This document shows positions 416 through 32,303 of a DNA stretch of 37,769 bases, piece by piece (the stretch's first letter is position 1; every line of letters begins with the position of its first letter). The notes beneath the pieces were generated by a model. That model made no database searches. It was given only the letters and a program-made list of their open reading frames with translations, and was not told the DNA's origin. The position numbers were made by a program, and so were the translations under genes. The stretch is taken from IMG/VR virus record IMGVR_UViG_3300045988_180316; one strand, written 5' to 3'. The stretch comes from a virus. Taxonomy: Duplodnaviria; Heunggongvirae; Uroviricota; Caudoviricetes.

Positions 416-1579
416 ATGACTGCAAAAGAAATTGATTTTTTGAGCTCGCGTGAAATAGTAGGTTTCACGCTGCCTGTGTTGCATACCAAGGGCGGTTACT
501 GGTATGTTGACTTTACTGCCTTTGACCCTGTCTCGGGTCGGATGAAGCGCAAGAAGTACATGCTTAATAGGTACAAGACAGACCACAAGAAGCGTATGAT
601 GGGTACCTTGCTTATCCACAATATCACGGCAAAATTGACCGCTGGCTGGAATCCTTGGGTGAATGCCGACAAGTCGAGACAATTCACTGAAATACCAATT
701 ATCTTTAGTCGTTATCGTGATTATATTAAGTCGATGACCGACAAAAAGTCGATGAAGGAAAAGACCTCTATCGACTACCTCAGCCGCCTCAAGACTCTGG
801 AGTCTTTTATCTCTGAGTGCAAGAGTGTCAAATATGCCTATCAGATTGACCGTGCCTTTGCCATCGACTTCTTAGACCACCTGATGTATGACCGTGATGT
901 GAGTGCTACCACAAGAAACAACTATCGCTCTTGGCTTGTGTCCTTCGGCACTTGGCTTATGGATAGAAAATATATCAGCGAGAACCCTGCCATCGACATC
1001 AGAAACATCGCTCAGAAGGAGAAGTTCAGAGACCCTTTGACCGAGGGCGCACTTAAGAAGCTGAAGACTTATCTCTATGATAACAACAGACATTTTCTCT
1101 TGGCTTGCCTCTTTGAATATTATACCTTTATCCGACCGAATGAGTTGACGCAGATAAGAATCAAAGATGTGTCGATTGCTGACCAGACGGTCTTTATCAG
1201 TTCTGCCATCAGCAAGAACCGTAAGGACGGACTTGTGGCATTGAACGATGAAATCTTGAAGCTCATGATAGAGCTGAAGATATTTGAGCATCCGGGACAT
1301 TGTTTTATCTTTGGCAAGGGTTTGAAGCCCGGAGAGGAAAGAGCACCTTATAATCAGCTGAGAGTGGAGTGGGGTAAGATGAGAGATGCGATTGGGTTTC
1401 CGAAGGAGTATCAGTTTTATAGCCTGAAGGACACTGGCATCAGGGATTTGGCGAACGCACAGGGTATCGTGGTCGCCAAGGATCAGGCACGCCACTCTGA
1501 TATATCTGTGACGAATCGATATATCAAGAACCAGATGAAAGTGAACGAGGAGACCAAGCACTTCAAAGGTGGGCTTTAG
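416..1579 (+). CDS. Tyrosine recombinase / phage integrase
   Basis: 387 aa. C-terminal catalytic region contains the conserved Arg (FIRPNELTQIRIKDV), the His/Arg box (QARHSDISV) and the Tyr nucleophile (TNRYI). Sits next to the tRNA 3' end. Confidence 0.9.
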   Translation: MTAKEIDFLSSREIVGFTLPVLHTKGGYWYVDFTAFDPVSGRMKRKKYMLNRYKTDHKKRMMGTLLIHNITAKLTAGWNPWVNADKSRQFTEIPIIFSRYRDYIKSMTDKKSMKEKTSIDYLSRLKTLESFISECKSVKYAYQIDRAFAIDFLDHLMYDRDVSATTRNNYRSWLVSFGTWLMDRKYISENPAIDIRNIAQKEKFRDPLTEGALKKLKTYLYDNNRHFLLACLFEYYTFIRPNELTQIRIKDVSIADQTVFISSAISKNRKDGLVALNDEILKLMIELKIFEHPGHCFIFGKGLKPGEERAPYNQLRVEWGKMRDAIGFPKEYQFYSLKDTGIRDLANAQGIVVAKDQARHSDISVTNRYIKNQMKVNEETKHFKGGL

Positions 1580-3568: not shown

Positions 3569-6500
3569 TTATTTGTTTGACTTCATTTTTTGATATTGGC
3601 TCCATTGGCGGTCGAAGCCATCGGGGCCGGTGATGACCACGTATGACTTGATGCCAGCGTTGAGCTGCTCGTTGAGTCTGTCGATGGTGGTATGCACGCT
3701 ATCGAGGGATGCGCCCATCTGCTCGGTGTCGCCACCTGATACGTTGACCACTGGGGCGACCACGGCTGCGCTGCCTGTGCCCATGGCACGGCTCACGTCT
3801 TGGGCGGTGAGCGAGGCGACCGTGTTGTTGCGCTGCGCCATATCGATGAGCTGCAGGGCAGGGAGGAGCTGAGGATTGTTGACGGCGTTGTGGTTGGCGA
3901 CGAACTCGCCAGCGTGAACCACGCCAGCCTCTTTCTTGTAATTGCCAGGACCAGTGAAACCACCCTCGTAATAGCCAGCCGCCTCTGCCTGGTGCTGCTT
4001 TTTGATTGTTGCTATCTGGAGCATGCCCGCTGCGGTGGCGAGACCTGCGGCGATAGGACCAAGGATGTGACCCACCACTGGGATGGCTGCGGCTGATGAG
4101 TAGGCGTTGATGGCAGCCATGGCGGTTGAAGCTATGGCTTGTGCGATCTCTATCTTCATCGCCTTTTTGTTGGCCTTGCTCTTGGCTGCAGCCACCTCTT
4201 TGTCTCGCTTCGCCTCGAGACGCTTTTTCTTGGCTGAGTTGTTGCCAGCGGCAGAAATCTGCTTATCGTAGTTTTTCTCGATCTTGGCGACCTCTAGGTC
4301 TGAGCATGCCTGGGAGTAGGCGGAGGCAGCGCCCATCATCGTGTTGATGCTGCTGAAGGCAGCGCCAGCGATGGAGGCTATCTCTTGATAGGTCTCTTTG
4401 TTCATCTGCTTTTTGGCATCCTGGTATTGCTGCTCGCTGATTTTATCCTCGTCTCGAAGCTTCTGAAGGTTTTGGTTGACCATCTTTTGCTGTTGGATGG
4501 CTGCGATGGCACCACCTGCGATTGTGGCGAGGTTGTCGCTGCCCATGGCATTACTGTTGTCGCCATTGCCCTTGGTCATCTTTTTGGCGGTGTCGAGGGC
4601 GGTGTTGGCATCCTCTTTGCGCTGCTCATCGGCGGTAGGCTTGTATGAGGCGTATTTGTTGGCGATGCCCATCTTTGTGCGCTGGTATTCCTCCTCTCTG
4701 ATGAGACCTGCCTTGTAGATGGCTTCGAGCCCCTGCAGCTCTAGTTGCATCTGCTCTTCGTTGCCGAGCTTGCCGTATTCTTGGCGCAGCTGAAGGAGTT
4801 GTTCGTCGTGTTGCTTCTGAAGGTCGTATTTGCGTTGCTGTTGGGTCAGCTCTCGCTCTTTCTCGATCTGGGCGTACTCGTCAGATGAGGAGAGGTAGAG
4901 GGCTTGTTTTTTGTTGAGATAGTCCTGGTATGAGAGAAAGAGAGCCTCGTTGACGGCATCCTCATTGTGATAGAGGTTGGAGTCTTTGTTGTAGTAATCG
5001 GCATTGAGCTTCATTTCTTTTTTCTGTCGCTCGGTCTCCAGGGCTTCGAGGTCGGCGGTCTGCTTTTTCTCGTAGTCGGCAGCGATGTTTTCTTTCTCTG
5101 CATTGAGTCGCTTGTACTCTTCGCTCTCAGCCTCGCCATACTTTTTGAGAATGTCGAGGCGATCCTGAAGCCCCTGCTCTTTGATATTCTTCATCTTCTC
5201 GTTGTATTCGGCGAGTCGAATCTGACCTGTAGCGTAGAGGGTCTTGGCATCGAGCTCTTCGGCTTGGTTGGCTTTCTTAGCATCGTCTAGCTCTTTTTTC
5301 ATGTCGGCCTTGCGCTTTGCCTCTGCCTTGCGAGCGGCAGCCTCACGTTTCTTTTTCTCCTTTTCGGCAGCTTTGCGCTCTTTCTCGGTCATGGTATGGC
5401 CAGAGGAAGGGGTGGTGTGTGTCTCTGTAGTTGCGCTATTGTTTAGTAAATTCTTCTTTACAGTCTTGTTGTACTGTTTCTGCAAATTTACGTTTTTCTC
5501 TAATTGCTGATTATAGAAATTCTCTTCAGCATTGACTTGCTTTTGCAGGCTTAGGTTTGCCTGTAGTCTTTGCGTATGAACTTGCTTTTGCTTCTCGTTA
5601 CTCTTCAGTGCCTCGTTTTGTTCGATGAGCTGACCTGTCCATCCATCAGCCACGGCATTGCTCTCATATTGCTTAGGATGAGCCTTGCGCTCAGCATCGA
5701 CAGCCTTCAGCGAATATCGTATGCGGCTTTCTTTTTGTTTGAGTTCCAGTTTCTTTTTATTGATTTCCACCTTGCGCTCATAGATGGCTTCTGCCATGGC
5801 AGCATTTTCTAGCTCCTTGATGTAGTTTTGGATGGCAATCTGGTTGTCGTTATACAACTTGCCCTCTTTGGAGATAGAGGCGTGATATTCTGGGACGAGC
5901 TTTATCATATTTGCGATAGCTTGCTTTCGCTCGTCAACGGTATAGGCATTGGAGTGGATAACCTTGTTGAGCATATCGACCTTGTTGCGCTCATCGAGGG
6001 TAGCATCAGACACCTTTTTGGCGAGGCTGGCTTGAGCCTCTGCCACTGCTCTGTTGTTTTTAGCCTCTTGCGTGTTGTTGCGCATCGCCTCGTTGTAAGA
6101 TGTTATGGCTTTGTATGCCCCATAGGCAGCCACGCCCACCACGGTGATGACTGTGGCGAGGGCAGCCCATGGATTGGTGAGACTTGCTAGGCGTGCTGCC
6201 CTCATCACCACGATGTAGCCCTGTATGCCTTTTGTGAGATAAGCCCATGTGGCTTGCAGTGCCACTAAGGCAGCACGCAAGAGTGTAGATGTAGCGGTAT
6301 AAGCTTTATCGACAGCTGAAGCGTATTGTACGGCGGCTGTTTTAATCTTAATGGCGATGGTCTCCTTGTACCAGAGAGCAGTACAAACAGCGATGGCTGT
6401 TGACAGCACGGCTATTTGTTTTGCATAGGTGACGGTGAAGGTGATGAGCGTGGACATGACCTTTATGGTCAGACTGAATGATGTGATGCCATATTTCATG

Positions 6501-10926: not shown

Positions 10927-12570
10927 TCACGTGAATTTATAGAACTTCTTTTTGAACTTATTGTGAAGCTCTGCGACCACGGTGGAGAAGGGTAGCTCGT
11001 CACGACAGAAGTCGTTGAGGGCTTGGTCTATCAAGATCTTGGAGCCTGTATAGAGGTAGTGCTCCTGAGGCTGCCATACCTCGGTGCCGTCTGGCTCCAG
11101 GTGGTCGATGATGCGATAGCGAAGGGAGAGGCGCTTCTTGGGTACCTCTTTGGTGACCATGTGGGTGGAGCCGTCCGGGGCGGTCTCCTCTTGCTGGATG
11201 GTCTCCTTCTCTATCACCGAGTCATCGACCTTGTAGTCTATCACTTGGACGAGGAACTTGTTCTCGTCCTGACCCTCACGGCAGATGATGTCCTCGATGG
11301 ACTGCTGCTGTGATTTCTCCATACCGTCAAAAGGCACGCGCGCACGGCGAGCCTTGACGAGTTTACCGAATCTTTCCATACCGATTTTCTTATATAAGTG
11401 TTTTGAGTTTGCGTGGATGCCCAGTCCTAGGCGAGAGGCTGCCTTGATCTGTATCTGACGGTCTGTGAAGCCCGCCTTGCGTAAGTTGGCAATCTGTTTG
11501 CAGAGGTCGTGCTTGAACCGCTTGCGCAGCAGGGCGTGGTCAGCGTAGATGATCTGACCGCAGAAGTCGATGCCATCGCAGGTGCGGTGGATACCCCAAG
11601 ACTTATTGATGGATAGGTGCCAGTCACGGGCGAGGTGCATCACGGCAAGCTCTGCCATCAGCCTGAGGAACACCTTATCCTCGTGGAGGATGTAGATGTT
11701 GTCCATGAAGCGGTAATAATGGCGAAGACCTTGGCGGCAGAAGCGCTCGAACCTATCGTTGAGCGACTTCACCCCCCCACATAGCAGCTGAGCTTGCTGC
11801 TGAGTGCGACAGGTAACGAGCATGTCGCTCACGTAGCGAGCCTGCCAGTAACGGAACTTGTCGGTGTCTTGGAGAATGTCGAAGCATCGGAGTGCCAGGT
11901 AATCGAAGCGGGCGAGGAAGAGCTGACCCAAGAGTTGGGCGAGCTTGACGCCGAGCACGATGCCTGGATTGAAGCTATCGACCACCTCGTCGATGAAGGC
12001 GAGGAGCTTGCGGTCTTTGATCTTGCGGCGATATTCACTTTTGAGAAGAGCGTGGTCTATGCTCTGAAAATAATGGTGAATATCCATGGGCAAGCAGTAG
12101 AAGGTATCTTGCTGTGGCGAGTTGAAGATGTCTCGCTTGACAAGATTATAGAAATAATGGGTGCCCTTGCCCTTGGAACCAGCCGGACTGTGGCTGTAGA
12201 GTGTCTTGCGAAGGTTATCCTCTACAGGTTGCAGGGCAGCGTGCTGGATGACGTGGTCGATAACGGGCAGCTTGTTGACTTGGCGATGTTTTGGATAGTC
12301 GATATCTTTGGCGACATAGGCTGAGGTATGCCAAGTTTGTTGGGTGTAAGCATCGAGCATGCGTCCGATGTTATGGTCTAGGTTTGCCTCGAATTTTTGG
12401 ACCGCACGGCGAGACATCTTTTGTCGGGCGTAGTCATAGAATGCCCGACGAAAGTTGTCTAGTGTCTCGACCTGTGGCGATATGTTGCCAAACCTTTTCA
12501 TAAGCGGTGTAATGTCTGTGTTGAACGGTGTATAAACTGTGTATAGTCTGAATCGTCTGCTTTTGTACAC
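10927..12570 (-). CDS. DGR-type reverse transcriptase with non-canonical catalytic motif
   Basis: RT motifs in the translation: SPAGSKGKGTHY (compare bRT RPDKGTH), FYCLPMDIHHYFQSIDHALL (motif 3), GIVLGVKLAQLLGQLF (motif 4, the DGR-typical G-x-x-x-S/A-Q) and RFMDN-IYILHEDKVF where Y-x-D-D is expected. Start may be 12570 or 12501. Lies downstream of the template repeat. Confidence 0.8.
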   Translation of the reverse strand: MYKSRRFRLYTVYTPFNTDITPLMKRFGNISPQVETLDNFRRAFYDYARQKMSRRAVQKFEANLDHNIGRMLDAYTQQTWHTSAYVAKDIDYPKHRQVNKLPVIDHVIQHAALQPVEDNLRKTLYSHSPAGSKGKGTHYFYNLVKRDIFNSPQQDTFYCLPMDIHHYFQSIDHALLKSEYRRKIKDRKLLAFIDEVVDSFNPGIVLGVKLAQLLGQLFLARFDYLALRCFDILQDTDKFRYWQARYVSDMLVTCRTQQQAQLLCGGVKSLNDRFERFCRQGLRHYYRFMDNIYILHEDKVFLRLMAELAVMHLARDWHLSINKSWGIHRTCDGIDFCGQIIYADHALLRKRFKHDLCKQIANLRKAGFTDRQIQIKAASRLGLGIHANSKHLYKKIGMERFGKLVKARRARVPFDGMEKSQQQSIEDIICREGQDENKFLVQVIDYKVDDSVIEKETIQQEETAPDGSTHMVTKEVPKKRLSLRYRIIDHLEPDGTEVWQPQEHYLYTGSKILIDQALNDFCRDELPFSTVVAELHNKFKKKFYKFT

Positions 12571-12709
12571 TTGATAACCTTCGACCGGATGACCGTGTTG
12601 TCATCATCTACCAGCTGTCTTATTGATGTGTATGTATCGCCATGGGGCGAGGATTGACCCTGTAATCTCGAAGTGGGAGCAAACGACCCACGAAGAGATA
12701 TGTCTGTAA

Positions 12710-13069: not shown

Positions 13070-14542
13070 TTAGGCCGCCTCGTAATACACGGGTTCCACT
13101 GACCACTCGGATGCTGCTTCGCAGAGGGCGGCGCCGCAGTACACATAGGCAAGCGAGACAGCATCGCTCACGTCGCGCGTCGAAAGACCGCATTGACCAC
13201 CAACGTAAGCGCTAGCACCACGAAGGCAGACACGAAAACCGGATGTAGCGCCGCTATTATTCCAGAAATAGCTAGTCCAATAGGTTGACTCGGATGCGCC
13301 CGTGGCGGTCGGGAAGTTCTCCAGATGCTCCATCGAGAGCGTCTTGATAAAGCCTTCGCCCTTGGTCGGCGAGGTGCTGTAAGCCACCATGCCATCGGCG
13401 GAACCTATCGTCCACGTGCCGTAGATGGACGGTGCCACGAGATGGGTCACGGAAGTGTCTTCGTTGCATCGCACCTGCTCGTCATCCATGTGTCGCCACA
13501 ACGAGCCGAAGCCATTTTTGTAGCCGAAGAAGGATGGTATCTTGGCGGTATAGACCACGGTGCCATCGTCTTTTTTGACCTCGTAGCTTGCCTCGCCACA
13601 AGCGTCGCCCAGCTCGATGCCGGCAGACATCGGCACGACAGGGCGATAGCCGTTGTAACCACCCCAATCAGGCATCTGTGTCACGCCAGCTCCGAGACCA
13701 CCCTGGTAGAGACCGTTGGCATCTTTTTGGCTGTTGACGGCATCCTGGTCGTAGTGGGTGCCGAAGATGACCCCGAAGAGCACGGCGATGGCAGAGGTGT
13801 GGCGCATGGTGGTGCAGAGCCAGCCTGTGCCGTTTTTGCGGGCAGCGGCACGCCAGTATTCGGTAGTCTGGTTGGTGGCAGCCTTGCCCAGCATGGTGCG
13901 GTTGGTGTTATCTAACGTTGAGTCGTTGTTGCCGCCTCGGTAGTCTGTGCCCTCGTTGATGTAACTCACCAGCTTGCCTGTGCTGCGCTCTAGCGTGGCG
14001 AAGCCAGCGGCGGAGATGCTGCCAACAGGTATCTTGTAGTTGTACTCGCCTGGTATCGGCGTAGGGCTGACCATCTCGTAATGGAGTCTGCCCACGGTCT
14101 TGATGACCATGTACCACTCCTTGCCCCAGCCCCACTGGTAGTGCCCCTCTGAGCCGTCGAGCTTGGCTGTCTCGCCGGTGGCATACTTGTAATGGTCTTT
14201 GGAGTCGAGCTTGCGACGGGAGTGGTCATTCTTGACTAGGTAGCAGCCCAGACCCAGCTCCGCTGGTAGGGTCTGCAGTAACTCCAGCGAGCCCACATAA
14301 GTGGCGGCCTTAGGGGTTGCATTGTCGAGGTTCCACACTCGACCACACCAAGGATGCTGTCCCATCTGGACGGCGCTTTTGAGCGACATCTGCTCAGACC
14401 TGCCAGACTTTTTGTCGAAGACCTCGACAATCTTGTCTGTGGCGCTCATGTCTGACTGTGGGAGGTCGTCAACCTGTTGACCTCCATCGAAAGCGGCTAT
14501 GATAGCCTTGAGCTTACTCTCTTCTTCTGATGTTAATGCCAT
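13070..14542 (-). CDS. DGR target protein, putative receptor-binding / tail fibre protein with C-terminal variable region
   Basis: ~490 aa. The C-terminal ...GFRVCLRGASAYVGGQCGLSTRDVSDAVSLAYVYCGAAL... is the variable counterpart of the template repeat. Start moved to MALTSEEE (14542) to remove overlap with the upstream gene. Last gene of the tail-fibre operon. Confidence 0.8.
   Translation of the reverse strand: MALTSEEESKLKAIIAAFDGGQQVDDLPQSDMSATDKIVEVFDKKSGRSEQMSLKSAVQMGQHPWCGRVWNLDNATPKAATYVGSLELLQTLPAELGLGCYLVKNDHSRRKLDSKDHYKYATGETAKLDGSEGHYQWGWGKEWYMVIKTVGRLHYEMVSPTPIPGEYNYKIPVGSISAAGFATLERSTGKLVSYINEGTDYRGGNNDSTLDNTNRTMLGKAATNQTTEYWRAAARKNGTGWLCTTMRHTSAIAVLFGVIFGTHYDQDAVNSQKDANGLYQGGLGAGVTQMPDWGGYNGYRPVVPMSAGIELGDACGEASYEVKKDDGTVVYTAKIPSFFGYKNGFGSLWRHMDDEQVRCNEDTSVTHLVAPSIYGTWTIGSADGMVAYSTSPTKGEGFIKTLSMEHLENFPTATGASESTYWTSYFWNNSGATSGFRVCLRGASAYVGGQCGLSTRDVSDAVSLAYVYCGAALCEAASEWSVEPVYYEAA
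13121..13242 (-). repeat. DGR variable repeat (VR) inside the target gene
   Basis: Aligns to the template repeat with an offset of 411 bp. 10 of the 12 differing codons are Asn in the TR. A GC-rich CGGCGCCGCCCTC sits at the 3' end of both repeats (IMH-like). Confidence 0.8.
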
Positions 14543-14564
14543 AATAAAAAATGTATTTAATCGA

Positions 14565-15329
14565 TTAAACAATGCGTAATTTATCACCAACTTTTCTAAG
14601 CTTGCTCGATGCCGACAGGCGAAGGCGAGGCTGGCGTACGGTGATGCTGACCTCTTGCCAGAGCGGTGTGTTGGCGGTGGGGATGACCCAGAACTTGGTG
14701 ATGCCCTCGCCCTTGATGGTGAGGTTGCCGCTTGGGTCTGCCACGAGCGAGTCACCCTCGGCTCGCTGGAAGAGCACGCTCTGTGGGAGGTAGCTCGGCA
14801 GGATCTGCACGGCGATGCGCTGAGCCACCTTGTTGCGCAGGCTTATCTCGGGGAGATAGGCCAGGTTCATGCGAGCTGGCGCGATGAAGCCTGTGGCTAT
14901 CTGAGCGGCGAGACCATCCATCTGCGCTATCTTGGCATCGGCTCGCTTGGATGCCGCGTCTGCCTCTGCAGCCTTGGTCTCTGCCAAGGCTGCCTGTGAT
15001 GCTGCCGCCTCGCCCTGCTCGCCAGCCGCCTTGGCTGCGCTCTGGGCGAGGTTAGCCGCCTTGTTGGCATCGTCGGCCGCACCCTGCGCTCTGACGGTCG
15101 GTGTCTTGTCGAGCCACAAGCGCCACTTGGCGTTGGTATCTGAAGGAGTCGTCGTGTTGCCATCCTCTAGGGAGGCGAAGACTCCTGACGATGTGTGAAC
15201 GATGTCGCCCTCGTCGTAGCCCTTGACGGTCTGGCCATCCTCATCTTGATAGGAGTAGCCCGACTGCCAGGTGCCCTGGTCGGTGAAGGCGACATTGCCC
15301 ACGACAATGATGTTTGTGTTATCTGCCAT
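14565..15329 (-). CDS. Hypothetical tail-fibre-operon protein with Ala-rich coiled coil
   Basis: 254 aa; central Ala/Gln/Glu-rich helical segment; tightly spaced in the operon 13070-20281. Confidence 0.45.
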   Translation of the reverse strand: MADNTNIIVVGNVAFTDQGTWQSGYSYQDEDGQTVKGYDEGDIVHTSSGVFASLEDGNTTTPSDTNAKWRLWLDKTPTVRAQGAADDANKAANLAQSAAKAAGEQGEAAASQAALAETKAAEADAASKRADAKIAQMDGLAAQIATGFIAPARMNLAYLPEISLRNKVAQRIAVQILPSYLPQSVLFQRAEGDSLVADPSGNLTIKGEGITKFWVIPTANTPLWQEVSITVRQPRLRLSASSKLRKVGDKLRIV

Positions 15330-27647: not shown

Positions 27648-28073
27648 TTAAACATACTGTAGAACTGGTCTATCTATCAAGAGTCCAGTATCTATATCTC
27701 CTTTAACTTTTGCTATACCTTGTCTAATTTTCTCCAAGCTTTTGCCTTGTGGTACCTTGATGCCTGCTGCATATTGTCGAAGCAACGAGGCGTTCATGCC
27801 GATATACTTGGCGAAGGCTGAGATACTTAGAGGATAGTAGTTGAAAAATGCCCCAACATCGAAGACGAAGTGAAACTCCAAGTCTGGGTACTCCTTACCT
27901 TCCTCCTCATAGAATTCTCTCATTTCCTTATCTGCAATGAGGAAATCTTCCATAGCAGCCTTTGCGGTCTTGCCGTCACCAATAAGGCCAAACGTCAAGT
28001 CATCAGTCCCAGTCATGAAGCAAGAATATAAATCCTTGCCAGACTCCACTACAACAGTAACTTTTCTTGCCAT
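27648..28073 (-). CDS. hicB: HicB-family antitoxin with C-terminal HTH domain
   Basis: 141 aa. N-terminal ~90 aa has the HicB-like pattern (KVTVVVESGKDLYSCF...GDGKTAKAAMEDF). C-terminal segment YPLSISAFAKYIGMNASLLRQYAAGIKVP is HTH-like. Downstream of hicA. Confidence 0.6.
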   Translation of the reverse strand: MARKVTVVVESGKDLYSCFMTGTDDLTFGLIGDGKTAKAAMEDFLIADKEMREFYEEEGKEYPDLEFHFVFDVGAFFNYYPLSISAFAKYIGMNASLLRQYAAGIKVPQGKSLEKIRQGIAKVKGDIDTGLLIDRPVLQYV

Positions 28074-28149
28074 ATCTTTCTATATATAAAGTTCATAATC
28101 AAAAGTGTCCTTCTTGCATACCAAGAAAATCATGGAAGAAGAACCTGGG

Positions 28150-28332
28150 CTAAAGCCCAAGTTCTTGATAGATAGATTTCAGAGTGCGAATATTCACCTC
28201 TTCAGTTCCATGCCGAGGAACGGCAGTGCTCTTCCCATTGGCTGGGTTGAACCAAATGTCGTGTCGGCCTCCATGACGAAGTAGAAAGCATCCCGCTTTC
28301 TTTAACTTCCGATACAGTTCACTGTATTTCAT
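28150..28332 (-). CDS. hicA: HicA-family toxin (mRNA interferase)
   Basis: 60 aa from MKYSELYRKLKKAGCFLLRHGGRHDIWFNPANGKSTAVPRHGTEEV..., the HicA pattern. Start moved from the ORF-track 28407 to 28332 because a TACCTTTG -7 motif lies at 28377-28384 inside the longer ORF. Confidence 0.65.
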   Translation of the reverse strand: MKYSELYRKLKKAGCFLLRHGGRHDIWFNPANGKSTAVPRHGTEEVNIRTLKSIYQELGL

Positions 28333-28376
28333 AATCTCAGTATGTTTAAAGAACACTTTGTCCTTATTGGACGATG

Positions 28377-28384
28377 CAAAGGTA
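28377..28384 (-). promoter_or_regulatory. -7 promoter element TACCTTTG (minus sense) for hicAB
   Basis: Plus-strand gatgcaaaggta; 45 nt upstream of the hicA ATG at 28332. Confidence 0.4.
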
Positions 28385-28520
28385 ACAATAAAGTTATAAA
28401 TAACCAAATATTTCGGTAACTATTTTGTTATATTACCTAAGATTTAACATTTATACATAAAGATAAGCGATGTCCCTACCTCTTTTAGGCTCTTGCCAGA
28501 CCGCTTTCGCCGCTAGGCGA

Positions 28521-28576: not shown

Positions 28577-29263
28577 TTATAGCTTTCCCTTGTCGTGGTA
28601 GCTGTAGAAGCCATCCTCGGCTAAGATGATGTGGTCCATCAAGAAGAGTCTCATCACCTCGCACGCCTTGGCTATCTTCTGCGTGAGCATATCGTCCGCC
28701 TTGCTCGGCTGCGTGCTGTTCGATGGGTGGTTGTGCGCCACGGCGATGATGGTTGCGTTGTTGAGCACGGCTTCTTTCATTATCAGCCTTATGTCCACCG
28801 CTGTGTCGGTGATGCCTCCCTCGCTGAGCTTCACACTCTTTATCAGTCTGAAGTTTTGGTTCATCAGCACTACCCAAAAGCCCTCTGTCTCATTGCTTCC
28901 CATCATCGGGCGAAGATAGTTGTAGAGTGCTAGGCTGCTGCCTAGGTCGGTATTACGTGCCACCTTTTCCATTTGGTAGCGTCTGCCTAGCTCGATGGCT
29001 GCCTGTAGGGCTATCGCCTTGCAGTCGCCGATGCCTGGTACCACCTCTAGGTCTTCGATTCTCGCCTTGCCGATATTGCGAAGTGAGTTGTCCATGATGT
29101 TATAAATCTGTCGTGCCTGCTCTTGGCTGTCCTTGGTACCTGCCCCTCTGTTGATTACCAAAGAAATCAAGTCAACGTTGGTTAGGGTGTCGAAGCCTTG
29201 GTTATAGGCTCTGTACTGCGGTCTCTCCTCCATACAAAGGTCGTTATAATTTTGTCGTATCAT
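28577..29263 (-). CDS. radC: RadC-like JAB-domain protein
   Basis: 228 aa with the JAB/MPN metal-binding motif HNHPSNSTQPSKAD and the helix-hairpin-helix-like N-terminus typical of RadC (UPF0758). Confidence 0.75.
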   Translation of the reverse strand: MIRQNYNDLCMEERPQYRAYNQGFDTLTNVDLISLVINRGAGTKDSQEQARQIYNIMDNSLRNIGKARIEDLEVVPGIGDCKAIALQAAIELGRRYQMEKVARNTDLGSSLALYNYLRPMMGSNETEGFWVVLMNQNFRLIKSVKLSEGGITDTAVDIRLIMKEAVLNNATIIAVAHNHPSNSTQPSKADDMLTQKIAKACEVMRLFLMDHIILAEDGFYSYHDKGKL

Positions 29264-29279
29264 AGCTATATTGTTTTAA

Positions 29280-29804
29280 TTAGTTATACATTCTCTTGGT
29301 TCTCGCTAGGAACATCGCTCCCATCACTTGTGCGCCACATTCTGCTAGCTCGTTGGCGAACTCTCGGGCGGTCGCACCGCTTGTCACCACATCGTCGAAG
29401 ATGATGACTTTCTTTCCGTTGAAATACTCTCTATCGAGTGCCACTCTGTAGTCGAAGCTCTCGCACACTCTGTCGGCGCTGAAGTGCTTTGCCGTGCGCT
29501 CGCCATAGATGGAAATGTGCTCGCTTCCGTTCTGTACCTTTGCGCCTTGGCTCACCTTTTGGGCGAAGCGAGAAAAGCGCTTGTTGTACTTCTTGGAGTT
29601 GGCTGCTGGTGCGCATACCATCACGAAGTCGCTGGCTTTGTCGCCATAGGTGTTGACGAAAGAGCTGACCACCATATCGGCTGCGGCGTCTGTCGCCCAC
29701 TGCTTGCCATCCTTGAAAGCAAAGATGAAGTTTCTCACTTGCTCGGCTTGCGCTGAGCGGTCGAAACGCTTGGAGTTGTACTCGTAATAATTGAAAGTTT
29801 TCAT
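29280..29804 (-). CDS. ComF-like phosphoribosyltransferase-domain protein, no N-terminal zinc finger
   Basis: 174 aa with the PRPP-binding motif VIIFDDVVTSGATA. Start is 16 nt upstream of radC, so probably co-transcribed. Family called from motif only. Confidence 0.55.
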   Translation of the reverse strand: MKTFNYYEYNSKRFDRSAQAEQVRNFIFAFKDGKQWATDAAADMVVSSFVNTYGDKASDFVMVCAPAANSKKYNKRFSRFAQKVSQGAKVQNGSEHISIYGERTAKHFSADRVCESFDYRVALDREYFNGKKVIIFDDVVTSGATAREFANELAECGAQVMGAMFLARTKRMYN

Positions 29805-30701
29805 ACGCTCAAAATTTTTATTCTAGCCAGAGGGAGGAAGGAGCTTTTTGTTTGAACTCGTCTTTGCCTGCCCGTCTGAGAGTTTTTTTTATTCTGTCCG
29901 TCGGTCGTTTTTGTCGCTTTTTACGGTGCGATGCAGACGAGCGGAGAAGAGGTATGAAAGCCAAGGAATTTTGCAAAAAGTTTATGGAAAACCGCCATCT
30001 CTGATTGCGGAAGGCTGCCGAAAAGTTTTTGGAAAATAGATTTATCGGTACTTGGTGCATACCATCCGCCGTACCTTTGCACCCGAAAAAGAGATAATGA
30101 CCGATGGATAACCGATAAAGGGAAAAGCTCTCGGACAGGAAAAGCGGGCAAAGAAAAGGCTCTGCCTTACCTTGGTGGTTAAGCCTTAGCGACGTTTGAG
30201 CGCCATCACGGTCACCACCGCTTGAAAATTCGCAAATTTTAACCCTAGCGTATGAAATGAAAGATGGAAAATTTGCGTCATCAAAAACACCATGTTTTTC
30301 AGACTTCAGGAGGAAAAACATACCTTGGAGCGATGAAATCGCAGCATTTGGCAGGCTTCGACCCCGAGGTTGAAGATGCCAAATGTGTCGTTTTACGACA
30401 GGTTTTCCACACCCACGGATTGGAAAACCCCGATTTTATCGTGGTTTTAGGGATTCAAAGGGAAAATAATTCCCCTTTGTCGGCGATAGCACCCCCCACC
30501 GCCCTACGCCCGAGGGCGCCTTCCGCCCCCTTGGAAAAGACGGAATATGTAAAAGACCGTTAACGTTTTTGTAGGAATGTAAAAAGCCAAAAGGCACGAA
30601 AAAAGGGAACACGCTTCGCAGCGCACTCCCCTTATCGGCGGTCAAGCAAGAATGCCAGCCACCTAACTTATATAAGAATCGTACTATCTAAAGAAATCAA
30701 A
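29805..30701. other. ~900 bp apparently non-coding region with repeats, hairpins and a plus-strand promoter-like motif
   Basis: No convincing protein-like ORF. Repeated TGGAAAA(C/A) near 29985, 30031, 30265, 30421 and 30529; 9-bp inverted repeat ggttttcca / tggaaaacc at ~30401-30429; TACCTTTG on the plus strand at 30072-30079. Confidence 0.4.
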
Positions 30702-32303
30702 CTATAGCATGGAACCCGTGGCGATGTAGCCATCAGCCTGAGGGTATTTCTCCATGCCAATCATGAGCGTGTCGTAGGCATCGGAGCCATCGGTGCGAGC
30801 CTCCAACTTATCCTCCTCGGTCTCTGCCAGCTTCTCGCCTCGCTTATCCTTCTTGCCGTTGTAGACCCCGGCCAGGCGGATGGAGATGAGCAGGTCTTCG
30901 TTGTTCTCGCTGTTGATCATCGAGCGATGCTCAGCCTTGCCGAGGAACATGCGGTTGAGCAGAAGCATCTTTTCGAGATGTCCCATCGGGTTGCCCAGAT
31001 AGACCTCGTTGACATACCAGCCATGGTCGGTGAGGTAGTCGGTGATGAAGGTATGGAAGTCATCGTTCATCAGGGCGTAGTTGTTGCCCACGAAGGTGGA
31101 GTCGTAGTAGAAGTTGACCTCCTTGCACCGATGGTACTCATAGTACTGCATGAACTTGTCGAGCAGGGCGGGCAGCTTCTCCTCATACTTCACGAAGATG
31201 CTCTTGAGGCAGCGTGCCTCGCCCCGCAGGTTGTCTTGTCCGACGGCTATCCAGTTGATGAGGGCGTTGGCATCGAAGGCGATGCAGAGCGGACGGTCGG
31301 GGTCAACGTCGGCATCCATTCTGGAATCTACATGCTTGAGCTTGTCGATGTCGTAGCCTAAGCCATCGAGGTAGGCGAGGTTGGGCGCCGTGTATAGGTT
31401 GGCATCCCTGAGGTTGGAGTAGAAGCCATCGAGCGAGATGGAAGGCCGCTTGCACATGATGGAGGTCTGGAAGGTGAGGGCAGGGAGGTCTCGCTTCATC
31501 TGCTTGATGAACTCCATGCCGAGCACCTCGATGTTATAGACCGATGAGTACTCTTTATAGAAGAGTGCCTTGGAGCGCAGTTGCGCCAGGAGCTGACCAA
31601 TCTCTCGGAGTCGGCGCTGGGCATAGCCTGAGACATGGCCCGAGGTCTTGATGCGGTTGCGTATGTCATACTCCTCTACCACGAGCGAGGCGATGGCGTC
31701 GATGAGCAGCTGGTCGCAGTCTTTCTTGTAGTTGAGGAACCAGGAGCCCTTCTTGGTCACGGGCATATCAGAGGTGATGAGCATGCCATGGTGGTAGTAG
31801 TGCTGGCCGAAGAGGTTGACGTTGCCTCGATTGGCAGGGAAGGTCTCGTCTTTGAGCTGTTCGAAGTTGATGAACTTCGCCTCGTCGATGTCGAGGTAGT
31901 CGAGCGAGAGGGAGTTGGAGGTACCCTTGCGGTCTTGCGAGATGATGGTACCGATGGAGCCGTTATAGAAAGAGATGGTGTTCTCCCAGTTGCTGGGCGG
32001 TATGACCGGGTCGGGCCATCCCAGTTTTTTGGGAGGCTTGACCCCGATGAGATAATGCTTGCCCCGGTGGAAGCCCCATCGCTCCCAGTGCTGAAGCATC
32101 GACGGTATGGTGTTGGTGAGGCATCGCTTGGTGTTGGCGGATACGAAGCCGCCGTTGCTGCCAGGCATGCGCTGCATGTTGCGCAGGTTGAAGGTGGCGT
32201 GGAGAATGCTCTTGCCGATGCCTCGACCGCCCACGACCACGTTGTCGCGGGCGGAGATGAGGTTGACCTCCATCTGGGCTGGGTTGAGATATTGATCTAT
32301 CAT
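30702..32303 (-). CDS. terL: Terminase large subunit
   Basis: 533 aa. N-terminal Walker A (VVVGGRGIGKS), Walker-B-like LDYLDIDEA, C-terminal Asp-rich region consistent with a nuclease domain. Confidence 0.7.
   Translation of the reverse strand: MIDQYLNPAQMEVNLISARDNVVVGGRGIGKSILHATFNLRNMQRMPGSNGGFVSANTKRCLTNTIPSMLQHWERWGFHRGKHYLIGVKPPKKLGWPDPVIPPSNWENTISFYNGSIGTIISQDRKGTSNSLSLDYLDIDEAKFINFEQLKDETFPANRGNVNLFGQHYYHHGMLITSDMPVTKKGSWFLNYKKDCDQLLIDAIASLVVEEYDIRNRIKTSGHVSGYAQRRLREIGQLLAQLRSKALFYKEYSSVYNIEVLGMEFIKQMKRDLPALTFQTSIMCKRPSISLDGFYSNLRDANLYTAPNLAYLDGLGYDIDKLKHVDSRMDADVDPDRPLCIAFDANALINWIAVGQDNLRGEARCLKSIFVKYEEKLPALLDKFMQYYEYHRCKEVNFYYDSTFVGNNYALMNDDFHTFITDYLTDHGWYVNEVYLGNPMGHLEKMLLLNRMFLGKAEHRSMINSENNEDLLISIRLAGVYNGKKDKRGEKLAETEEDKLEARTDGSDAYDTLMIGMEKYPQADGYIATGSML

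Follow-up and report, generated by a model that had tools for sequence, protein, structure and literature searches.

A conserved bipartite element beside terL in Bacteroidales prophages is a candidate cohesive-end packaging site

The gap between the PRTase-like gene and terL

The stretch of DNA analysed here (hereafter the window) comprises 37,769 nucleotides of a Caudoviricetes virus, IMG/VR record IMGVR_UViG_3300045988_180316, and includes an 897-bp gap at 29805-30701 between a PRTase-like gene and terL, the gene for the terminase large subunit. This gap is a mosaic, made up of four units or more, and not an iteron origin. Its features, together with the two genes that border it, are:

29280-29804, minus strand: PRTase-like gene (Pfam Pribosyltran match)
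29805-30071, minus strand: sequence upstream of the PRTase-RadC cargo module, or its leader, with an eight-T run (plus strand) at 29881-29888 and direct repeats
29976-29991 and 30021-30036: 16-nt direct repeats, 45 bp apart, that carry TGGAAAA and are not conserved in relatives
30072-30079, plus strand: Bacteroides-type -7 promoter box, TACCTTTG, pointing toward the core and terL
30147-30166, minus strand: terminator-like hairpin followed by CGCUUUUCC, from a terminator scan
30231-30277: inverted repeat, CGCAAATTTT, 27 nt, AAAATTTGCG (10-nt arms, 100% complementary), at the left edge of the widely conserved part
30282-30479 (or, taken more widely, to 30491): hairpin-rich conserved flank
30292-30321, 30330-30342, 30345-30385 (two-tier), 30387-30399, 30401-30429 and 30456-30479: hairpins of this flank
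30479-30492: short hairpin or palindrome abutting the G/C block, GTCGGCGATAGCAC
30492-30510 (19 bp): G/C block of the core, CCCCCCACCGCCCTACGCC (terL strand, GGCGTAGGGCGGTGGGGGG), a candidate cohesive-end or cleavage sequence
30511-30540: core spacer, of fixed length and with a sequence that varies between groups
30541-30552 (12 bp): terL-proximal box of the core, CGGAATATGTAA (terL strand, TTACATATTCCG)
30599-30631, minus strand: intrinsic terminator of terL, stem GGGAGUGCGC / GCGUGUUCCC, loop UGCGAA, then UUUUUU
30702-32303, minus strand: terL (weak PHROG 2 "terminase large subunit" match, and 34% identity to annotated terminases, E 4e-81)

An earlier note on this DNA, made from its letters and open reading frames, saw no protein-like ORF spanning the gap, and this holds. 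Mechanical ORF calling yields frames of 167 aa (minus strand) and 99 aa (plus strand, 30264-30563). The gap is judged non-coding because neither frame has a match in Pfam, both are truncated, frameshifted or absent in relatives, and the variable sites of the 99-codon frame are spread evenly over the codon positions (13.2/12.3/14.0), without 3-base periodicity. The coding signal that the note had proposed to look for in that frame is thus missing. GC content across the gap is 0.44-0.50, and the AT skew of the plus strand is positive from about 29900 to 30700.

The hairpin at 30599-30631 is a terminator for terL on the minus strand only. Its folding energy is -20.7 kcal/mol (z -4.2) for the minus strand and -11.7 (z -1.9) for the plus strand, three G.U pairs of the former being A.C mismatches on the latter, and relatives keep the stem, again with minus-only wobble; a simple terminator scan did not list it. 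The hairpin at 30147-30166 folds at -8.9 kcal/mol (z -2.1) on the minus strand versus -7.1 on the plus strand. The inverted repeat at 30231-30277 keeps its arms in relatives while its loop varies.

The left part of the gap, 29805-30222, belongs to the PRTase-RadC cargo module as its leader and divergent plus-strand promoter. The segment 29805-29975 is nearly invariant in the window's group and recognisably homologous in distant groups and in relatives at 52% terL identity, and the PRTase itself (174 aa) matches the PADLOC models ShosT (4e-10) and PsyrT (3e-8). The plus-strand -7 motif that the earlier note placed at 30072-30079 is there and is conserved: TACCTTTG is the sole TAnnTTTG in the gap, the motif occurs 38 times in the window (14.7 expected), otherwise upstream of genes, and relatives have the box in the same place, with the two free positions varying (TACCTTTG / TAAATTTG) and TA and TTTG kept. 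This promoter travels with the PRTase and not with the core: of 80 loci that have a PRTase on that side, 79 carry it at 330-480 nt from the core, and of the 62 loci without one, 55 lack it. A 9-bp inverted repeat (30041-30049 / 30111-30119) flanks the box. An invertible promoter of the Bacteroides inverton kind was considered and rejected, since the promoter has the same orientation in all 79 PRTase-type loci despite this repeat.

The bipartite core at 30492-30552

At the centre of the gap is a 61-bp core, nearly identical in sequence across gut Bacteroidales prophages. It reads CCCCCCACCGCCCTACGCC, a 30-nt spacer and CGGAATATGTAA on the plus strand or, on the terL strand, TTACATATTCCG, then 28-30 bp, then GGCGTAGGGCGGTGGGGGG. 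The G/C block occurs once in the window even when 3 mismatches are allowed, and the terL-proximal box CGGAATATGTAA is unique there too. Elsewhere, the exact 21-mer was found in 60 IMG/VR stretches, and the strict bipartite pattern in about 250 fetched loci (173 distinct neighbourhoods), covering 16 species of Phocaeicola, Bacteroides, Segatella and Paraprevotella (Bacteroidales) as well as 119 metagenome stretches. Two of the pattern searches demanded the terL-proximal box, which is also present in groups retrieved with the C-block alone; the left half of the G/C block is likewise conserved where the pattern did not require it. Under a pattern that permitted 27-32 nt, spacers of 29 and of 30 nt were equally frequent (117 loci each) and the other 19 of the 253 loci had one of 28 nt; the spacer sequence cannot be aligned between groups. 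The flanks of the core are only 38-46% identical between groups and otherwise unalignable. A reduced form of the element, CATATT-N33-36-CGTAGG, occurs exactly once in each of 193 matching fetched loci (102 loci had no match), at the core wherever this was checked.

The position of the core is as constant as its sequence. There is one copy in the window and one per locus, always in the same orientation and usually about 150-200 nt after terL. In 114 of the 147 distinct loci whose flanks are long enough, terL is found on the box side at no more than 400 nt; in 22 more it is farther away in the same orientation, and none shows another arrangement of terL and core. This holds across terL identities of 51-100%. 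In the relatives at 52% terL identity, and also in the loci L144 and L111, PRTase-RadC sits between terL and the core, with the orientation unchanged, and a hairpin-rich stretch and a sense-strand promoter follow. The core is thus separable from its neighbours. Searches of deposited phage genomes with the core gave matches at chance level only, and a literature search for the motif as text returned nothing relevant.

A proposed cohesive-end packaging site and its alternatives

Our best reading, which we hold tentatively and at somewhat less than an even chance, is that the core serves the prophage as its cos (cohesive-end packaging) site. We favour it because the core shows extreme site-specific conservation while its flanks diverge; because the spacer keeps its 28-30 nt in all 253 loci with its sequence left free, as expected for two protein contacts on DNA; because the core stays on one side of terL in one orientation and is separable from neighbouring modules; because it aligns with the predicted genome end of Polaribacter phage Leef_1, where CATATT-N33-36-CGTAGG also occurs once, as it does in each matching locus; and because, between terL and portal, the related Bacteroidota phages Ingeline_1 and Porphyromonas phage028a have the break in their record or a block rich in G. 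Hence the packaging site, one of several functions offered in the earlier note, becomes the best supported of them, although through a feature that the note had not seen.

An invariant G/C-rich block as long as this one would be in keeping with known cohesive ends, such as those of lambda and P2. Here, a single site per genome lies beside the terminase genes, and its invariant short sequence and putative recognition element keep a fixed spacing (19-bp block, 12-bp box, 28-30 bp). The terL of Leef_1 is 27% identical to that of the window, and the Leef_1 record ends 83 nt after it with TTTCATATTATC-N31-CGTAGGCCACGGCGTTGT. The core, read on the terL strand, aligns without gaps to the last 60 nt of that record, its TTACATATTCCG box aligning with TTTCATATTATC; the last letter of the record falls at the far edge of the block, in the column aligned with window position 30491. 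The ends of Leef_1 are given by class only, as "Cos 3'", predicted with PhageTerm (PMC8776804). The record was probably rotated to this predicted cos.

Under the cos reading, the terminase encoded just upstream would recognise the G/C block and, at a constant helical distance from it, the box, and would cut concatemeric DNA at or within the block. This would leave terS-terL at one end of the virion chromosome and, at the other, the hairpin-rich arm followed by accessory genes (here PRTase, RadC and HicAB). The conserved hairpin-rich flank of about 200 bp might serve as a cosB-like arm or as an RNA. The sequences themselves show how the core is conserved, placed, oriented and spaced, that it is homologous to the end of a related phage record, the terL terminator, and the promoter's linkage to PRTase; binding and cutting by terminase at the core, the polarity and length of the overhang and the role of the hairpins are what we infer.

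Some observations sit less easily with a cos site. As a rule such sites are found upstream of terS, whereas the core lies downstream of terL. The nearest cultured relatives of TerL are only 24-34% identical, comparison with Pfam and PDB sequences gave no match and PHROG 2 alone matched, weakly; TerL appears too divergent for a packaging class to be assigned. Three collection scans with flank or core patterns, covering about 250 contigs, found none that breaks at the core, which counts only weakly against a cos site because these are bulk or prophage assemblies. A preprint on gut capsid DNA held no usable end data. A cos site also does not explain the compensated hairpins, notably the fast turnover of the one abutting the block, or why G.U pairs outnumber A.C pairs on the plus strand.

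These hairpins speak for the chief rival, a structured non-coding RNA absent from Rfam, which we regard as possible but clearly less probable; it would take in the conserved stretch, at about 30282-30552 or, where the locus is of the PRTase type, 30087-30552. The invariant block, C-rich on the plus strand and G-rich on the minus strand, would be a single-stranded site (seed, protein platform or Rho-loading) and the hairpins its scaffold. The flank is 76-97% identical in relatives whose adjacent terL is only 50-69% identical at 4-fold sites, and is under purifying selection stronger than at those sites. Its hairpin chain folds far better than shuffled sequence (z -5.0 plus, -4.3 minus), and 84% of alignment cells are paired, a share that falls to 38-48% with slid partners. 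Both partners have changed in ten pairs, versus 4-6 slid. Covariation is nevertheless modest: its score was reached by 12 of 500 shuffles, and the count of ten by 89 of 500. The 9-bp inverted repeat noticed by the earlier reader at 30401-30429 is real and 100% complementary (30401-30409 / 30421-30429) and forms one of these hairpins, with which an alternative pairing at 30424-30448 competes. Between groups, certain hairpins have clearly given way to unrelated sequences in which the pairing persists (CTTCGACC/GGTTGAAG versus CTATCAT/GTGATAG). The hairpin beside the block (30479-30492) exists elsewhere in at least six fully compensated versions (GTCGG/CCGAC, GTCAA/TTGAC, GTAGC/GCTAC, GTCTC/GAGAC, CTGCC/GGCAG and GCTGC/GCAGC), and in alignment A1 both pairs of its short helix (helix 8) change on both sides.

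A plus-strand transcript would agree with the GNRA loops (GAAA, GGAA, GTAA) on that strand, with the positive AT skew, with the conserved promoter 381-431 nt upstream in PRTase-type loci, and with G.U exceeding A.C (31 versus 13 cells in well-aligned sequences), although over all hairpins scanned the count is 54 versus 73. The signals of strand conflict, however: wobble in the hairpin at 30456-30479 is confined to the minus strand, and on the terL strand the block is followed, in some groups, by terminator-like hairpins. The plus strand yielded no terminator, and the promoter, as part of the PRTase module, is missing from most loci without it and, in the relatives at 52% terL identity, lies 2 kb from the core and points away. 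A single plus-strand RNA running from this promoter through the core is weakened by the same two facts. Pairing of the C-block with an upstream G-rich segment, also considered, reaches -23 to -27 kcal/mol in one group and is absent from the window's group. A spacer of free sequence and fixed length fits protein-DNA contacts better than RNA. Finally, Rfam 15 at gathering thresholds gave no match in the gap (the window's only matches, tRNA-Met and RT-17, lie elsewhere), its covariance models gave none in 29700-30800 even at E<=10, and ten related distant loci gave none at gathering thresholds. The non-coding RNA suggested in the earlier note therefore gains a hairpin-rich flank under selection, while a known family, for which it had proposed a covariance-model scan, is not found. 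It is unlikely, in our estimate, that the 200-470 nt around the core constitute a new structured RNA family of gut Bacteroidales prophages, absent from Rfam, whose functional site is an invariant 19-nt single-stranded C-rich (or G-rich) block next to a rapidly co-varying hairpin. Such an RNA could have a part in packaging or help to control the accessory-gene island, and could overlap a cos site as a dual DNA/RNA element.

Improbable, though in keeping with the bipartite form and fixed spacing typical of protein-binding DNA, is a transcription regulator or insulator site that separates the late terminase operon from the accessory island, working with the terminators and with a promoter 200-430 bp downstream. 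The core is always bracketed by a terminator that follows the genes upstream of it and by the first promoter of the block beyond, and a minus-strand TAnnTTTG is found 150-420 nt away in 56 of the 62 loci without PRTase. However, the nearest promoter is far off and at no constant distance (205-431 nt), the genes to be regulated differ wholly between loci while the core is invariant, no regulator gene co-occurs with it, terminase being its sole constant neighbour, and the match to the end of the Leef_1 record is left unexplained.

Still less probable is an attC-like or att-like site for site-specific recombination or cargo exchange, at which accessory modules would be swapped. Cargo on one side of the core does differ among close relatives (PRTase-RadC, ArdC-like, DnaQ-like exonuclease, HicAB), PRTase-RadC is found on either side, and hairpins that keep their pairing with free sequence recall attC sites. 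Yet no recombinase is linked to the core, the only integrase of the window being 30 kb away beside tRNA-Met; conserved sequence gives way to variable sequence 200-380 nt from the core and not at it; and each locus has one core copy, so that cassettes are not bounded by core repeats.

The TGGAAAA repeats that the earlier note called iteron-like are enriched but form no array. There are six copies in the 897 bp (29985, 30030, 30265, 30403 on the minus strand, 30421 and 30532) and 16 in the window versus 4.5 expected, an enrichment that is real because none of 100 shuffles reached 16. Their spacing is irregular and their orientation mixed, and Tandem Repeats Finder found no array. The conservation of the repeats that the note had proposed to check extends to the 30403/30421 pair alone. 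A replication origin built on these repeats is therefore very improbable, despite their enrichment and the two 16-nt direct repeats at 29976-30036, given that the gap lacks both an array of tandem or phased repeats and an AT-rich unwinding element, that the promoter-proximal copies are not conserved in relatives at 80% identity, and that its neighbours are terminase and cargo genes with no adjoining replication initiator gene.

Significance and relation to known systems

Temperate Bacteroidales phages of the core-bearing lineage are common in human gut metagenomes (119 metagenome stretches, 16 species-representative genomes), and the lineage has no cultured, end-mapped representative, nor is the core carried by any deposited phage genome. 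If the core is a cos site, the physical ends of these genomes are fixed, their packaging site is placed between terL and the portal side, and the variable accessory genes (PRTase-RadC, ArdC-like, HicAB, exonuclease) lie at a chromosome end. This last point, if true, would bear on which genes enter the cell first and on cos-dependent mobilisation of other elements. If the region encodes an RNA instead, it would represent an uncatalogued family with an unusually invariant 19-nt block. The 61-bp pattern is in addition a very specific marker (one match per locus) for finding the lineage and its cargo hot spot in assemblies.

The gap shares with iteron-type origins (lambda ori, theta plasmids) a short motif that is over-represented in a non-coding stretch, but lacks their phased direct-repeat array, AT-rich unwinding element and adjacent initiator gene, and its repeats are not conserved. 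Its promoter candidate resembles the Bacteroides primary-sigma promoter (-33 TTTG / -7 TAnnTTTG) in that TACCTTTG keeps TA and TTTG while the free positions vary; it differs in lacking a clear -33 element and in pointing away from the only adjacent genes. Like the ShosTA and PsyrTA PRTase toxin systems, the neighbouring cargo PRTase is always paired with a second gene, but the partner is RadC, a RadC/JAB protein, and not a DprA-like ShosA. With the phage and prophage RNAs GOLLD and ROOL of Rfam and the phi29 packaging RNA (pRNA), the region has in common several hundred nucleotides of conserved, hairpin-rich, non-coding sequence near packaging genes in a prophage. It differs from them in that the conserved flank matches no Rfam model (E<=10), in its modest covariation, and in a promoter and terminator that are undefined in most loci.

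The closest comparison is with cos phages (lambda with cosQ-cosN-cosB, the PhageTerm "Cos 3'" class such as HK97-like phages, and Leef_1 with its predicted cos). The core differs from these in lying downstream of terL, on the terL-portal side, and not upstream of terS, and in having as its flank a chain of compensated hairpins and not repeated terminase-binding boxes. It resembles them in being a single copy adjoining the terminase genes, in joining a short invariant G/C-rich block to a second conserved box at a fixed distance, in its non-coding flanking arm of 100-300 bp, and, for Leef_1, whose ends are predictions, in the gap-free match to the close of the record.

Composition of the gap

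The earlier note had described the interval between the PRTase-like gene and terL (29805-30701) as lacking a protein-like ORF, and this was borne out. Mechanical calls gave a 167-codon minus-strand and a 99-codon plus-strand ORF crossing it, neither with a Pfam match; both are truncated, frameshifted or absent in relatives, and their variable sites are spread evenly across the three codon positions, with no coding signal for the plus-strand ORF that had been singled out for checking. The gap is non-coding. The observation was thus correct; the interpretation as a single element was not. Five units make up the gap: the terminator of terL, a bipartite site, a conserved hairpin-rich arm, an inverted repeat, and the PRTase-RadC leader with a divergent promoter.

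Features of the window (coordinates, strand where assigned, description)
224-299, tRNA-Met, at one end of the window
416-1579, tyrosine integrase, at the same end
10927-12654 and 13070-14755, minus, RT-17, reverse transcriptase and tail protein region
29280-29804, minus, PRTase-like gene, 174 aa (Pfam Pribosyltran)
30072-30079, plus, TAnnTTTG box TACCTTTG
30231-30277, inverted repeat
30479-30492, 5-bp hairpin abutting the G/C block
30492-30510, G/C block CCCCCCACCGCCCTACGCC, with the next entry the most conserved letters
30541-30552, terL-proximal box CGGAATATGTAA
30599-30631, minus, hairpin and six U (folding energy, relatives)
30702-32303, minus, terL, 533 aa (weak PHROG 2 match and similarity to annotated terminases)

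The tRNA-Met and tyrosine integrase at one end indicate that the window is a prophage. The 533-aa product is 34% identical to annotated terminase large subunits across 98% of its length, and its gene (30702-32303) encodes a large terminase. The hairpin at 30599-30631 is the terL terminator: the minus-strand fold has -20.7 kcal/mol (z -4.2), the plus-strand fold only -11.7 because three G.U pairs turn into A.C mismatches there, and the hairpin is kept in relatives, wobble again being minus-only. Downstream of the PRTase gene come RadC and HicA (Pfam). The HicA toxin (Pfam, 1e-12) precedes a 141-aa gene (together 27648-28407, minus) resembling HicB-like genes that adjoin the core in other loci. 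Elsewhere, a 547-aa ORF has no Pfam RT match but does hit PHROG 1423, 'reverse transcriptase' (E 1e-54); an Rfam RT-17 RNA (12553-12654, 59 bits) immediately precedes it, and its next neighbour is a tail protein gene (PHROG 5302); the three together look like a candidate diversity-generating retroelement cassette.

A bipartite core and its cargo

Seventy-two IMG/VR relatives were fetched via TerL. Those with the PRTase are 77-98% identical across the entire gap, while those with other downstream genes keep only its right-hand part (about 30223-30678). Identity here is 76-97%, against only 50-69% at the 4-fold degenerate sites of the neighbouring terL in the same pairs, so this part is under purifying selection with or without the PRTase. 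Read along the terL strand, the window's core is TTACATATTCCG, 30 nt, GGCGTAGGGCGGTGGGGGG. A 21-mer containing the G/C block occurs in 60 IMG/VR stretches, many otherwise only 38-46% identical to the window. The looser bipartite pattern was found in 16 species-representative genomes (Phocaeicola, Bacteroides, Segatella, Paraprevotella) and one contig labelled Lachnospiraceae, and likewise in 119 metagenome stretches. Spacer length in 253 loci is 28, 29 or 30 nt (the pattern permitted 27-32), and the half of the G/C block that the pattern left free stays almost invariant. A version of the motif reduced to six plus six letters, CATATT-N33-36-CGTAGG, has exactly one occurrence per locus in the 193 fetched loci with a match.

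Position was scored in the 147 of 173 distinct neighbourhoods with sufficient flank. terL lies within 400 nt of the core, on the box side, in 114 and further away in the same orientation in 22; none was seen in 11, and no other arrangement occurred. Among core-bearing loci, terminase identity to that of the window is 51-100%. Relatives with a TerL about 52% identical carry the core after PRTase-RadC, with one letter altered, and two comparison loci (L144 and L111) share this gene order. This makes the core an autonomous unit; cargo occurs on either side, and the terminase is its sole constant companion. Tentatively, a cos packaging site is the best reading of this bipartite, near-invariant DNA site; the packaging function earlier listed as one option for the gap would belong to the core. 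On the side facing away from terL, the core is flanked by a cargo hot spot (six loci), and ArdC-like anti-restriction genes, a DnaQ-like exonuclease, HicAB or lysis genes replace PRTase-RadC in different loci.

The left-hand 420 bp of the gap are part of the cargo, not of the core. The plus-strand TACCTTTG, reported earlier as a -7 motif, was found at the same position; it is conserved, with its two free positions varying. In distant PRTase-type groups the core has the same plus-strand box at a distance of 381-431 nt. Of the 80 loci with the PRTase on that side, 79 have the box; of the 62 without, 55 lack it, and a sense-strand promoter lies 150-420 nt from the core there instead. In the relatives with 52% identical TerL the box sits between terL and the PRTase, at 2 kb from the core, and is aimed at terL. 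The 170 bp preceding the PRTase start codon hardly vary and can be recognised from group to group; the gap contains no canonical TAnnTTTG promoter for the PRTase. The PRTase matches the PADLOC toxin models ShosT (4e-10) and PsyrT (3e-8), and PRTase-RadC may be a toxin-antitoxin or defence pair. RadC always accompanies the PRTase (28577-29804, minus). A conserved leader of about 270 nt and the divergent promoter go with the two genes, which can be on either side of the core. A human faecal phage contig (MT836929, 3001-3129) shares 72% identity with window 29962-30087 only, the segment carrying the plus-strand promoter, and is otherwise unrelated.

Hairpins, repeats and competing readings

About 200 bp left of the G/C block form a chain of hairpins, which the cos reading does not explain. 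A new structured RNA, which could coexist with a cos site, is the main rival, and we consider it unlikely. In its favour, the segment folds far better than shuffles (z -5.0 and -4.3 on the two strands), and the comparison between groups is more telling than that within the window's group: unrelated yet still pairing sequences stand in for entire hairpins. In an 18-sequence alignment of the window's group with eight hand-defined helices, 84% of cells pair, vs 38-48% with partners slid, and ten pairs show double-sided changes, vs 4-6 when slid. The shuffle control, however, was only moderately exceeded (ten pairs reached in 89/500 shuffles, the covariation score in 12/500), and the covariance-model scan proposed earlier gave no Rfam family in the gap or in related loci. 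Furthermore, the strand signals conflict: G.U over A.C (31 vs 13 cells), GNRA loops and positive AT skew at about 29900-30700 favour plus, whereas wobble in hairpin 30456-30479, a minus-only T run after hairpin 30292-30321 and, in several groups, terminator-like hairpins after the G/C block favour the terL strand.

The hairpin abutting the G/C block has at least six compensated versions, three among loci with identical flanks; in five such loci, three of its five pairs are altered and fully compensated. This turnover is unusually fast, and no reading explains it. Compensated hairpins point to probable selection on single-strand pairing (RNA or DNA) or on dimer-bound palindromes. The 9-bp inverted repeat was confirmed where previously placed (30401-30409 / 30421-30429). 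Outside the window's group, a small AATT-centred palindrome (CTAATTAG, GGCAATTGCC, GGAATTGCC) is usual in the spacer (five loci) and may be a third recognition element or cleavage centre. One group has, upstream and some 245-280 nt away from the core, a GTAGGG...GGGGCGGGTGGG segment that is complementary to the C-block; the duplex comes to -23 to -27 kcal/mol. The window's group has no counterpart.

TGGAAAA, described earlier as iteron-like, has six copies in the 897-bp gap and 16 in the window (4.5 expected from shuffling), so its enrichment stands; its iteron nature does not. An iteron replication origin is rejected, with copies irregularly spaced on both strands, the two promoter-proximal ones missing from relatives about 80% identical, no tandem repeats reported in the gap by Tandem Repeats Finder and no AT-rich stretch there.

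The cos reading and reported phage ends

All TerL relatives from cultured phages are distant. Polaribacter phage Leef_1 has its terL homologue as the final gene, and the record stops 83 nt beyond it; the genome ends are listed as 'Cos 3'', a PhageTerm prediction (PMC8776804). Its final 60 nt are TTTCATATTATC, 31 nt, CGTAGGCCACGGCGTTGT, and the last 18 nt are 67% G+C (genome 29.7%). MAFFT aligns Leef_1 with 29-nt-spacer loci without a spacer gap, the window's 30-nt spacer having one extra base; T, CATATT and CGTAGG are invariant, and the record ends at the column of window 30491, the far edge of the G/C block. By a rough hand estimate, the probability that both short matches occur by chance with the correct spacing in the 83-nt AT-rich tail is about 1e-6. 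Additionally, the break in the linear Ingeline_1 record falls between terL and a small ORF, with the portal next, and about 210 nt past terL, ahead of the portal, a Porphyromonas prophage carries a G-run block. Both agree with a putative end of the chromosome between the terL and portal genes of this terminase lineage. Porphyromonas phage028a (BK068109) has a 124-aa 'hypothetical protein' annotated at 4233-4607, after terL and before the portal; it contains the G-run GGGAGGGGGGTGGGGGTG and may be a mis-called non-coding packaging region.

With a strictly conserved G/C-rich block and a second box at a fixed distance, the core would resemble the cos sites described for lambda and P2.
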